The notes below the pieces were generated by a model. That model was not told the origin of the DNA. It saw only the letters and a program-made list of their open reading frames with translations, and did no database searches. This document shows positions 36,029 to 45,617 of a stretch of 64,000 bases of DNA, one piece after another (position 1 is the stretch's first letter; each line of letters opens with the position of its first letter). The stretch comes from an uncultured delta proteobacterium. GTDB lineage: Bacteria; Myxococcota_A; UBA9160; SMWR01. The stretch spans positions 320,001 to 384,000 of the forward strand of contig CAWHTE010000004.1 in the NCBI GenBank assembly GCA_963832165.1, written 5' to 3'. A program made the position numbers and the translations under genes.

Positions 36029-38920
36029 ATGGCCCAGATGCAGCGAAACCTCGAACTTCAGTGCTCGAAGCTGCTCTTCGAGCGCGCGCGCGCTGCGGCG
36101 CCGGGGCGCGTAGCAGCTGCGTGCGGCGGCGCGTGCGTTCGTGCGGCGTCACCGGCGCGATCGCGCGGCTATCTGCGCTGGGTGCTGCGCAGTGTCGGCG
36201 CGAGCTCGGGGCTCGCGGTCGCACTGCTCGGGCTCGCGGCGCCCGCGAGCGCGGGGCTCGCGCCGTTCGCCGCGCAGATCGGCGCGGCGAACCCGCTGTT
36301 CTTCCAGGACGTCGGGTTGCCTCTCGACGCCTGCGTTCGGCGACCTTGACGGCGACGGTGACGTCGATGTGATCGCAGGGGAGCCGGGCGGCATCTCTCG
36401 CCTACTTCAAGAACACGGGCAGCGCGACGAGCTGCGGCGTTCGCCGCGCAGACCGGCGCGGCGAACCCGCTAAACGGGCAGGACATCGGGGGCCGCGCCG
36501 CGCCTTCGCTCGGCGATCTCGACGGCGACGGCGACCTCGACCTGCTCGCGGGTGCGGGCCTGGGAGCCTTCGCCTACTATGAGAACACGGGCGACGCGAC
36601 GAGCCCGCTGTTCCTCCTGCTCACCGGCGCGGCCAATCCGCTCGACGGCGTGGATATCGGCAGCACCGCAACGCCTTAGCGCTCGGTGACCTCGACGGCG
36701 ACGGCGACCTCGACTTCTTCGCGGGCAAGGGCGGCGGCGGTTCTACGACTACTACGAGAACACCGGCGATGCGACTACCCCAACCTTCGTGGCTCGCACG
36801 GGCGCTGCGGAACCCGCTCAACGGCTCAGGACGTCGGCAGTCTACTCGGACCCCGGTGCTCGGCGACCTCGACGGCGACGGGGACCTCGACCTGATCGCG
36901 GGCGAGCGAGGGGCGCTCCGGTGCCTTCTTCTTCGTCGAGAACACCGGCAGCGCGATCGCCCCGGCCTTCGCCGGCGCGCACGGGAGCGGCCAACCCGCT
37001 CGGCGGCGCGAGCGTGGGAAACTCCTCGGCTGCCATCGCTGGGCCGACCTCGACGGCGACGGTGATCCCGATCTGGTCGCAGGCGCGACCGACGGGGCTT
37101 CTTCACTGCGTTCGAACACCTCGGCGGACGCTTCGTGTCTCGCGGACAGGCGCCGCCAACCCGCTCGATGGTCTGACCGTCGGAGGCCCGATCGATTCGC
37201 ATCCGGCGCTCGCCGACCTCGACGGCGACGGCGATCAGGGACCTGGTCACCAGCGATGACATCGGTGAAGGTGGCACCTTCAGCTACTTCCAGAACACGG
37301 GCACGCGCGACCATCCCGGCGTTCATCCCAGCGGACCGGCGCGAGCAATCCCTTCGACTTTTTGGGCTCGCGGCGTTCCTGCAGAGTCTGACGCCCACGT
37401 TCGGCGACCTCGACGACGACGGCGATCTCGACCTCGTCACCGGCGACGCGAGTGGCCTCATTTCTACCTCGAGAACACCGGCAGCGCGTCGAACCCGGCG
37501 TTCATCGTGCGCACCGGCACGGCGAACCCGCTCGACATCGACGCCGGATACTTCTCAGTGCCTTGCCTCGGCGACCTCGACCTCGACGGCGACCTCGACG
37601 CCATCCTGGGCAACAGCGATGGCGACTTCCTGTTCCACCTCGAAAACATCGGCACTGCCTCCAACCGAGAGTTCAGGTTCCCCCGACTTCATCGGTCCTG
37701 AGCTCAATCACCTTTCCTACCCGTCGCTCGGCGACGTCGACGGCGACGGCGATCTCGACGTGATGTCGGGTGAGATCAACGGCACGTTCTACTACCTCAA
37801 TAATTTCGGCAGCTCGACCAGCTTCTTGTTTCAAGCTCTGGTCAACTCAGGGAACCCGCTCAATGGCCAGGACGTGGGGAGCAACGCGGCGCCTGCGTTC
37901 GGCGATCTCGACAGCGACGGCGATCTCGACCTAGTCTCGGGTGACTCCACGGGCGCCTTCTCCTTCTTCGAGAACTTCGTCCCGCAGACGCCCTCTGCGC
38001 TCGAGCTCACGGGTGGAGCCAATCCGCTCAATGGTCAGGACGTCGGCAGTTTCTCCAGCACTGCGCTCGGCGACCTCGACGGCGACGGCGACCGCGACCT
38101 CGTCGCGGGGGTTGGCGGTCTCGGCAGCGAGGACGGCACCTTCGCCTACTTCGAGAACACGCGCAGCGCGAAGAGCCCCGCCTTCGCGGCGCGCACGGGC
38201 ACAGCCAATCCGCTAGATGGCCAGGACGCCGGTAGCAGCTCGAGGCCCGCGCTCGGCGACCTCGATGGCGACGGCGATCTGGACCTGATCGCGGGGGAGC
38301 ACTATGGCGCGTTGAGCTATTTCGAGAACACCGGCAGCGCGACTAGTCCGATCTTCGTTCCTCGCACGGGCACGGCCAACCCGCTCGATGGCGAGGACGT
38401 CGAGGTCGCGGCGCCGTCGCTCGGCGACCTCGACGGCGACGGCGACCTCGATCTCGTGGTGGGCGAGTTCAACGGGATCTTCGACTACTACGAGAACACC
38501 GGCGACGCGGCGAGTCCCGTCTTCGTCGCCAGAACGGGAGCGGCCAATCCCCTGAATGGCAAGGATGTGGGGCTCCACTCCAAGCCCGTGGTCGGCGATT
38601 TCGACGGCGACGGCGACCTCGATCTGCTCTCGGGCGAGCTCGAAGGCGCCTTCTTCTACTTCCGGAATACCGGCAGCGCCACGAGTCCGGCGTTCGTGCA
38701 GCTCGTGGGTACGGGTCCGCTCGGCGGCGAGGACGTCGGGCAAGGCTCGACTCCCACCGCGGGCGATCTCGATGGCGACGGTGATCTCGACGTCGTTGCG
38801 AGCGAGACGGACGGCACGTTCCACACCTATTACCTCCCCGAGCCCGCGCGCGGGTGGCTGCTCGCCGCGGGGATCGCGGTGCTCGAATGGCTGCGGCGGC
38901 GTAGAAGTCGCGATGGGTGA
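36029..38920 (+). pseudogene. FG-GAP-like repeat surface protein 1 (15 repeats, PEP-CTERM-like tail); 5' half heavily frameshifted
   Basis: Leader MAQMQRNLELQCSKLLFERAR...YLRWVLRSVGASSGLAVALLGLAAPASA; 15 D-x-D-x-D-G-D motifs countable across frames; intact from about 37680; ends FHTYYLPEPARGWLLAAGIAVLEWLRRRRSRDG. Confidence 0.8.
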
Positions 38921-44604: not shown

Positions 44605-45617
44605 AGACGATGAGCGCGGTCGTTTCGCTGGCGCTGGTGACGTGTGCCGCCTCCGCTGGCGCTCTCACCGACGTATTCGGCACCGGAGCAAACGAGTTCA
44701 GCATCGACTTCGTCGGGATCGGCGATCCGGGCAACCCGGCGGACACCACGGGCAACCCCAATCCCGGCGGCTCGGTCCCCTATCTCTTCCAGATCGGGAC
44801 CTATGAAGTCAGCCGCGACATGGTGATCAAGGCGAACGCCGAAGGCGGGCTCGCGATCACGTTGCAGGACATGACATCGCTCGGGGGCAATGGTCTAGAC
44901 CGGCCCGCGACGGGAGTGAGCTGGAACGAAGCCGCTCGCTTCGTGAACTGGCTCAATATCAGTGAGGGATTCCAGCCGGCCTACAAGTTCAGCACCCAGC
45001 CCGGGGGTGGGGGCTACAGCGCGAACGCGAACATCGTTCTCTGGCAAGCGGGCGACACTGGCTTCGATCCAGCCAATCCGTTTCGCAACAGCCTCGCTCA
45101 CTATTTCCTTCCGAGCGCCAACGAATGGTACAAGGCGGCCTACTACGATCCGATCTCCGGCAGCTATTTCGACTACCCGACGGGCAGCAACGGCGCGCCG
45201 ACGCCCGTGTCGAGCGGCACGGCGGCCGGGACCGCGGTCTACAGCCGGTTGTTCTCCCACGGCCCCGCGGACATCGATCAGGCGGGCGGCCTGAGCCCGT
45301 ATGGCACGATGGCGCAGGGCGGCAATGTCACCGAGTGGATGGAGACGGAGGCCGATGGGGTCAACAATTCCCCGTCGGCCGTTCGCATCGAACGCGGCGG
45401 CGGTTGGCGGAACGACTCCAGTCGCTTGCTGGCAACGGGCGTGTTCAGCGACCTGCCATCCGATGGTTTCGACGATATCGGCTTCCGGGTCGCCAGCGTC
45501 CCCGAGCCCGGCACACTCGAGCTGGCGTTGTTGGGGTTGGGCTTGACTGCGTTGTGGACGCGCCGGACACGGGCTGGCCGCTGCTCATCGTCGCTTGCGC
45601 AGCCAGGAACCCGCTAG
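44601..45617 (+). CDS. FGE-sulfatase (SUMF1/EgtB/PvdO) domain protein with PEP-CTERM sorting signal
   Basis: Signal peptide; IGTYEVS, VSWNEAARFVNWL, LPSANEWYKAAY, GGNVTEW, RGGGW, IGFRVA; tail VPEPGTLELALLGLGLTALWTRRTR. Confidence 0.88.
   Translation: MKTMSAVVSLALVTCAASAGALTDVFGTGANEFSIDFVGIGDPGNPADTTGNPNPGGSVPYLFQIGTYEVSRDMVIKANAEGGLAITLQDMTSLGGNGLDRPATGVSWNEAARFVNWLNISEGFQPAYKFSTQPGGGGYSANANIVLWQAGDTGFDPANPFRNSLAHYFLPSANEWYKAAYYDPISGSYFDYPTGSNGAPTPVSSGTAAGTAVYSRLFSHGPADIDQAGGLSPYGTMAQGGNVTEWMETEADGVNNSPSAVRIERGGGWRNDSSRLLATGVFSDLPSDGFDDIGFRVASVPEPGTLELALLGLGLTALWTRRTRAGRCSSSLAQPGTR

Follow-up and report, generated by a model that had tools for sequence, protein, structure and literature searches.

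The window analysed here is a stretch of 64,000 nucleotides (nt) of contig CAWHTE010000004.1 (assembly GCA_963832165.1), from an uncultured delta proteobacterium of the Myxococcota_A. On its plus strand it carries an array of three repeat-protein genes, copies A (36029-38920), B (38913-41735) and C (41728-44604), followed by gene D (44601-45617). Coordinates are those of the window unless a contig or locus is named; G000 is the genome carrying the window, G004 a genome of the same genus, and C-numbers are contigs of G000. The overlaps are 8 nt for A/B, 8 nt for B/C and 4 nt for C/D (ATGA). A first-pass annotation of this DNA had described three head-to-tail paralogues, and the overlaps and the intact frames of B (940 amino acids, aa) and C (958 aa) agree with it, but copy A is not an open frame as assembled, being broken in its 5' 1.7 kb. 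The shared layout stands for all three: a leader, 15 DxDxDG repeats of 52-62 aa each (found with a hidden Markov model in C and counted across the frames in A) and a PEP-hydrophobic-basic tail. FG-GAP_3 and FG-GAP exceed the Pfam cut-off in both intact copies and in the 3' part of A (E 5e-63), and no NCBIfam family names copy B or C. The proteins are about 60% identical (B versus C, 61%), and no direct DNA repeat family in the array exceeds 82% identity, a value reached by two gene junctions; the array is therefore not a duplicated-assembly artefact, a possibility that the first-pass annotation had left for checking. Gene D encodes 338 aa, with a signal peptide, an FGE-sulfatase-like domain and a PEP-CTERM tail, both domains over the Pfam cut-off (FGE-sulfatase and PF07589).

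The leader of copy B (38913-39134; approximately 41728-41949 in C) has about 74 aa, of which some 50 form a basic helical extension, followed by an ordinary signal-peptide-like h-region that ends in A-x-A. Its amino-acid identity is 67%, versus 54% for the mature part, and it is conserved as protein, because changes fall mostly at third codon positions. Residues 1-76 of B match no Pfam family at E 0.001, including PF13018, and no NCBIfam family, and the ESM Atlas gave no usable match for the leader. Searching 1.84 billion representatives with the leader retrieved 74 proteins, 46 of them at E 1e-10 or better. Among these 46 strong matches, 34 run on into DxDxDG repeats and the other 12 are fragments no longer than 155 aa; none has another cargo domain behind the leader. 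Long basic leaders of a different but look-alike kind stand before the same repeats in G148 and G201, and also in six other homologues. Tat export was ruled out by eye, there being no RRxFL-type motif (B and C read RAF).

The PEP-CTERM-like tail occupies 41649-41735 in copy B, with a helix at residues 918-939, and approximately 44509-44604 in copy C. PEP is invariant in 71 of 71 aligned proteins, a set chosen for having the tail. Unlike the tail of gene D, those of B and C have no score on PF07589 at E 0.1. A regular expression defines 111 PEP-CTERM-like tails in G000, at least one of which looks false, and the exosortase sought elsewhere in the genome was found at five loci (six PF09721 matches over the cut-off, one split; TIGR02602 over the cut-off in one of four scanned). 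The description of the array products as exported, PEP-CTERM-tailed DxDxDG propeller proteins in an exosortase-bearing genome is thus supported, and their sequences make anchoring and display at the cell surface likely. They share with the PEP-CTERM/exosortase system of Haft 2006 the PEP-transmembrane-basic tail, the N-terminal signal, about 110 copies per genome and the presence of exosortases, and differ from it by the 74-aa leader and by translationally coupled paralogues, in contrast to the single-gene operons described in PMC1569441.

Using the first 130 residues of B as query, we retrieved 1343 proteins of 517-1645 aa and examined the best 120, whose named members are mostly proteins of Myxococcota metagenome-assembled genomes annotated just as FG-GAP/VCBS repeat proteins. 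The homologues are multi-copy and uncharacterised, which answers the concern that they might be single-copy, already characterised proteins. The best 120 together with B and C yielded 72 proteins with both leader and tail: 15 repeats are present in 60 of them, 10 repeats in ten, and 14 and 12 repeats in one protein each. Across the 60 proteins with 15 repeats, an N-x-G connector is found in 49-57 at inner repeats and in 9, 11 and 3 at repeats 5, 10 and 15. The AlphaFold2 model of copy B (pLDDT 87, pTM 0.73) and its structural matches have the beta-propeller fold of four-stranded blades, and a structural search with this model against 48,161 chains aligned three separate domains, residues 84-351, 357-637 and 645-917. 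Foldseek with the whole model returned just low-TM triple-propeller matches (SF3B3 and DDB1, TM about 0.2). From the five-repeat modules and the three aligned domains, each protein is therefore predicted to consist of three five-bladed VCBS propellers, which in B lie at 39141-39965 (repeats 1-5), 39975-40823 (repeats 6-10) and 40845-41648 (repeats 11-15). These three propellers per protein replace, as the unit, the 45 blades counted in the first-pass annotation, and modules of five repeats in domains of about 275 aa do not fit the seven blades of the integrin-alpha/PVL type. Several tail-bearing forms with one to four repeats, obtained by a search of shorter proteins, speak against a strict five-repeat rule; they may be collapsed assemblies, and one of them, P0138, shares its start and end with P0001. 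Another homologue, P0049, has a metallo-beta-lactamase-fold region before the repeats and is possibly a merged gene call.

Among known proteins the closest relatives are those of the VCBS/FG-GAP supercluster (PF13517, PF01839; integrin alpha, PVL, CRTAC1, tachylectin-2), which likewise have one DxDxDG loop per blade, are secreted and carry several propellers per chain (PMC8023676). By analogy with these, the DxDxDG loops of the array proteins are predicted to bind Ca2+. The array proteins differ in having five predicted blades that keep the Ca2+ loop, in strict modules of five; the DxDxDG members named in PMC8023676 are seven-bladed, and the five-bladed tachylectin lacks the loop. They also differ by the absence of a GW sugar motif, the long leader and the PEP-CTERM tail. 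The supplement of PMC8023676 lists unstudied propeller clusters that may bear on the novelty of the five-bladed DxDxDG form. Such a propeller in strict modules would be useful for studies of propeller evolution and for design.

The genome holds eight paralogues with the same leader, 54-61% identical, five of them dispersed outside the array. One, on contig C7 and thus away from the contig of the array, adjoins both the sole TIGR03032/DUF4915 gene and the sole GT41 gene of G000. This locus (L042, G000:C7:72455-78672) forms a complete three-gene module of paralogue, TPR-containing GT41 and divergent TIGR03032, and is syntenic in G004. We extended the comparison to 225 genomes of the class, of which 22 have the five-repeat module, 17 have TIGR03032 over the cut-off and 14 have both. 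TIGR03032 is present in 14 of the 22 genomes with the module versus 3 of the 203 without it, and lies within 4.1 kb of the module in 11 of the 14 having both. It also follows the leader: 13 of 16 genomes with the long leader have it, versus none of five with a short signal peptide (Fisher p 0.003, overstated because kin are not independent). For this count G006 was left out, its N-terminus being off the contig, and four weak matches (E 1e-4 to 9e-4) had been dropped beforehand. GT41 occurs in 9 of the 225 genomes at E 1e-25, in seven of them beside TIGR03032; it is optional, being found in just these nine and not in several near-complete genomes.

The association extends beyond the class. In the phylum of a cyanobacterial seed (151 genomes), TIGR03032 occurs in 13 of 13 genomes with the module versus 38 of 151 overall, and within 6.1 kb of the module in 11 of the 13, the seed being one of the two exceptions. 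Ten of the 11 adjacent cyanobacterial TIGR03032 fusions were scanned, and the domain joined to TIGR03032 is GNAT in eight and GT41 in two. The Nitrosomonas and Methylocucumis loci have TIGR03032 directly upstream of the cargo, as we call the propeller proteins. Cyanobacterial and Nitrosomonas cargo has no leader, starts directly with the repeats and has RTX-like ends, features with which it probably leaves by type I export. A contig scan with the whole-protein alignment, which relied on generic DxDGD patterns, caught mostly unrelated FG-GAP proteins; of the 78 loci obtained, two had TIGR03032, and these two belonged to the group with the closest repeat type. Within a scope that leaves out most subscription journals, a literature search returned no paper on TIGR03032/DUF4915, and nothing on VCBS with PEP-CTERM or on O-GlcNAc transferase with FG-GAP. 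Two further groups of genes belong to the surroundings of this family: a second Nitrosomonas TIGR03032 subtype (L262:8557-11281, L263:5695-8721) that adjoins other, apparently secreted RTX-like or integrin-like proteins and not the five-repeat module, and the distant TIGR03032-like propellers of L201-L206 in other class genomes, which have the same three-histidine pattern, in some cases a fused N-terminal domain, and no cargo link at these loci.

TIGR03032 has no evident signal peptide and is predicted to be a six-bladed propeller (pLDDT 86). Across 39 sequences, His115, His162-x-Asn164, Arg189 and His215 hardly vary. The corresponding motifs are H-D, H-x-N, W-R and P-H, with 97% conservation or more at His, Asn and Arg, and they align with motifs of PF14269 proteins. 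The residues follow the order of the site of Escherichia coli AssT, His252, His356/Asn358, Arg374 and His436 (PMC13426309). The protein resembles the PAPS-independent arylsulfate sulfotransferases (AssT, Cpz4) in its predicted six-bladed propeller and in the order His/His-x-Asn/Arg/His, and structural searches match it to members of this family (3elq, Z 19.9; 9kf6, Z 19.0). It differs from them in having no signal peptide and no match to the ASST families of Pfam, none appearing at E 10 in 20 members, and in a profile probability that does not exceed that of an unrelated propeller control. No sequence relative was found in the PDB at E 1, and the ESM Atlas returned DUF4915 clusters only. We regard kinship with the arylsulfate sulfotransferases as a lead, possible and somewhat short of an even chance. 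Sulfatase genes lie between or beside cargo and GT41/TIGR03032 genes at L152:13775-15364 (Pfam-confirmed) and L032:1508-2926, in G098 and G013, and give a hint of sulfate chemistry.

Taken together, the three array genes are read as three of eight paralogues encoding PEP-CTERM proteins with three Ca2+ propellers, likely displayed at the surface as variable binders and likely modified before export by the sole TIGR03032, which would engage the leader. We give this reading an even chance. In the mechanism that we propose, the basic helical leader would hold the unfolded chain in the cytoplasm or dock it on TIGR03032, which would transfer a small group via histidine, a sulfo group being the first guess; GT41, where present as in G000, would add a sugar. 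Sec would then export the chain, Ca2+ binding by the DxDxDG loops would fold it outside, and exosortase would process the tail. Variable loops opposite the Ca2+ loops could give each propeller its own binding surface, one enzyme pair could serve all eight paralogues in trans, and paralogue expansion would widen the range of surfaces or cells bound. Where export uses a C-terminal signal, the whole chain would wait in the cytoplasm anyway, with no leader; cargo exported by Sec, by contrast, carries the long conserved leader in company with TIGR03032 and lacks it where there is no TIGR03032, so that the leader would delay export or dock the chain. We infer this role because the leader tracks TIGR03032 in Sec-exported cargo, and by analogy with ESPR-bearing and glycosylated adhesins (PMC8151025).

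In that comparison, HMW1A/HMW1C and EtpA/EtpC also pair an exported adhesin-like protein with a neighbouring cytoplasmic GT41-family enzyme, and ESPR (PF13018) is likewise a long signal peptide of a kind reported to slow export (PMC8151025), although the leader here has no PF13018 match. The constant partner here is TIGR03032 and not a GT as in HMW1C, and the TPR-containing GT41 of G000 scores 41 on the NGT model NF049992, versus a cut-off of 1000. The HMW1A cargo is a beta-helix with type V export, whereas the cargo here is a propeller with PEP-CTERM or probably type I export. The array proteins are accordingly VCBS propellers and PEP-CTERM substrates in an arrangement that would work like HMW1C/ESPR without belonging to it. 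TIGR03032/DUF4915, a conserved hypothetical family, gains candidates for its substrate and its active site, along with a leader specific to the cargo. Because this leader tracks the enzyme, it would show by what means a protein bound for Sec export is kept back to be modified in the cytoplasm.

Several observations weigh against this reading. Modification, binding, expression and ligand of the cargo are all putative. Eight of the 22 module genomes have no TIGR03032, and three of these have the long leader (G013, G017 and G106, 84%, 95% and 87% complete). Conversely, no module match was found in 3 of the 17 class genomes and 25 of the 38 cyanobacteria that have TIGR03032, nor was GT41 found at E 1e-25 in the near-complete G001, G005, G128, G156 and G161. 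Related genomes are not independent samples. The leader is not the sole recognition element, because cyanobacterial and Nitrosomonas cargo lacks it. The sulfotransferase profile probability is 1% for TIGR03032 alone and 80% with six distant relatives, against 87% for an SMP-30-type control, and the top structural matches of TIGR03032 are YWTD propellers (Z 23.5), above ASST (Z 19.9). Finally, many repeat proteins have variable turns even though no selection acts on them.

A more specific version would make TIGR03032/DUF4915 a histidine-relay transferase distantly akin to the arylsulfate sulfotransferases that, with optional GT41 or GNAT, decorates five-bladed Ca2+ propellers before export across several phyla, the leader here directing eight exosortase-anchored paralogues to one enzyme in trans. 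We advance it tentatively and think it rather improbable; if true, it would be a leader-directed protein modification pathway yielding a chemically coded, variable surface display. Carrying similarly low probability is the proposal that TIGR03032 is no enzyme at all and instead a dedicated chaperone or targeting factor, which keeps the Asp-rich, Ca2+-free chain unfolded up to its export and leaves any chemistry to the fused GNAT or GT41. In its favour, the best structural matches are YWTD and Kelch propellers, which have no catalytic function. TIGR03032 is the invariable component, whereas its companion may be GNAT, GT41, a sulfatase or no enzyme at all, and HMW1C, too, has been proposed to act as a chaperone (PMC8151025). 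On the other hand, the invariant His, Cys, Asn and Arg in one propeller resemble an active or metal site, and five genomes keep the cargo with neither TIGR03032 nor the long leader, so that folding and export of the cargo do not need TIGR03032.

The state of copy A raises another alternative: it would be a true pseudogene, and the array would be a by-product of the birth and death of copies in duplication driven by repeats. A frameshift-aware alignment of A to B has at least 21 single-base indels between 36116 and approximately 37700; the C4 paralogue has one frameshift, and the copies of G100 and G155 are likewise broken as assembled. Yet the aligned path of A has no stop and no excess substitution, and its 61% identity to B is the same as that of B to C. 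The damage also continues upstream into an unrelated Zn-dependent dehydrogenase gene (34553-35915), which has six single-base indels relative to its 87%-identical G004 orthologue, whereas the gene at 30696-32426 has gaps at both ends only and no internal indels. A second assembly record, of 11,659 bp, holds C and D with different frameshifts, broken where the window is intact, so such indels differ between assemblies. Since the damage crosses the gene border and adds no substitutions, it looks like a poor-consensus patch (34844-37702, spanning the dehydrogenase/copy A border), and we consider the breakage of copy A quite probably an assembly error. A real pseudogene is rather unlikely, and would in any case concern copy A alone, B and C being intact. 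An exosortase gene at G000:C3:208608-209364 falls into two reading frames, probably because of a further frameshift in the assembly.

Variation among the repeats bears on what the propellers do. The conserved positions are the DxDxDGDxD loop, ENTG and NPL, with the DxDxDG motif located in loop AB; variability is greatest, with an entropy of 3.0-3.5 bits, in the G-xxx-G turn and in the two residues ending the long DA' loop. From general propeller geometry, these sites presumably face away from the Ca2+ loops, on the other side of the propeller. Two syntenic orthologues share 68% identity, versus 81-91% for the flanking genes. Of the possible roles of the displayed propellers, the most probable is variable adhesion or cell recognition. 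We consider it unlikely that the proteins are instead structural subunits of a Ca2+-cross-linked matrix or surface coat, their variation being drift at tolerant loops and not a recognition repertoire. That would suit the strong acidity of mature B (127 D+E versus 21 K+R, and no Trp), the flat module identities (58% at the same position, 57% within a protein and 55% otherwise) and the reported correlation of PEP-CTERM with exopolysaccharide production (PMC1569441); but accessory recognition accords better than a core coat with the patchy presence (22 of 225 class genomes), the range of 1 to 8 copies and a divergence that outpaces the flanking genes.

Lectins of the PVL or tachylectin type, with one repeated sugar site per blade, are very unlikely. 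The VCBS supercluster is common to both and tachylectin-2 is five-bladed, but the GW motif of loop DA', which forms the sugar pocket in PVL and tachylectin (PMC8023676), is absent from mature B and C, neither of which has any Trp, and averages 0.3 per protein across 71 homologues; that loop is moreover among the most variable positions. The glycan-binding role offered in the first-pass annotation thus loses its lectin-type pocket. The top structural matches of the B domains are GH159, GH43, GH62 and GH32 (best Z 18.8, rmsd 3.0, 234 residues aligned), all five-bladed families, but that the domains are glycoside hydrolases like GH43 or GH32 is scarcely credible. Sequence identity does not exceed 13%, the domain has internal symmetry and its conserved acids in the DxDxDG loops, and the 26 PDB sequence matches of the cargo, best for CRTAC1 and integrins, include no GH chain; the structural match reflects blade number.

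The array represents a head-to-tail expansion peculiar to its lineage rather than a conserved operon. Its site is empty in G004, where the gene corresponding to 33396-34482 is followed some 365 bp on by a PilZ gene, the dehydrogenase, the array and gene D being missing; G005 likewise lacks all three at this site. The G004 orthologue of the dehydrogenase sits on another contig. Gene D is a probable passenger and was rejected as a member of the system, as at least seven paralogues of it lie elsewhere in G000 and none of the related loci searched contains a match. Several of its paralogues, likewise FGE-sulfatase-like genes with PEP-CTERM, form a cluster at G000:C4:721309-726548. With five paralogues dispersed, the site empty in G004 and gene D a passenger, the array is not a conserved system, and the idea of a four-gene operon acting as one has to be given up. 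Of the 13 other genomes that match the leader strongly, four carry copies in pairs (G001, G005, G098 and G100). A FastTree phylogeny of 49 rows, from which the frameshifted C4 paralogue was left out, has long tips and the shape of a star; six changes are needed for the seven G000 rows, among which the one grouping, of C with the 3' part of A, is weak (support 86). Recent tandem duplication as the whole story is ruled out by this star-like tree. Taken alone, the tandem array is an ordinary paralogue expansion in a PEP-CTERM-rich genome.

Upstream of the array we found no sigma-70 promoter and no canonical sigma-54 site. An inverted repeat at 35859-35880 may be the terminator of the upstream gene or an operator; being unique in the genome, it is not a shared regulon box. 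On the minus strand of the window, 28274-29596 encodes a glucose/sorbosone dehydrogenase-family protein with a PEP-CTERM-like tail, kept at this site in G004. A different family of PEP-CTERM proteins of about 1300 aa, with weak FG-GAP similarity, forms an array of three at G000:C4:515859-526700, and a single copy of it lies at G000:C11:820471-823600.

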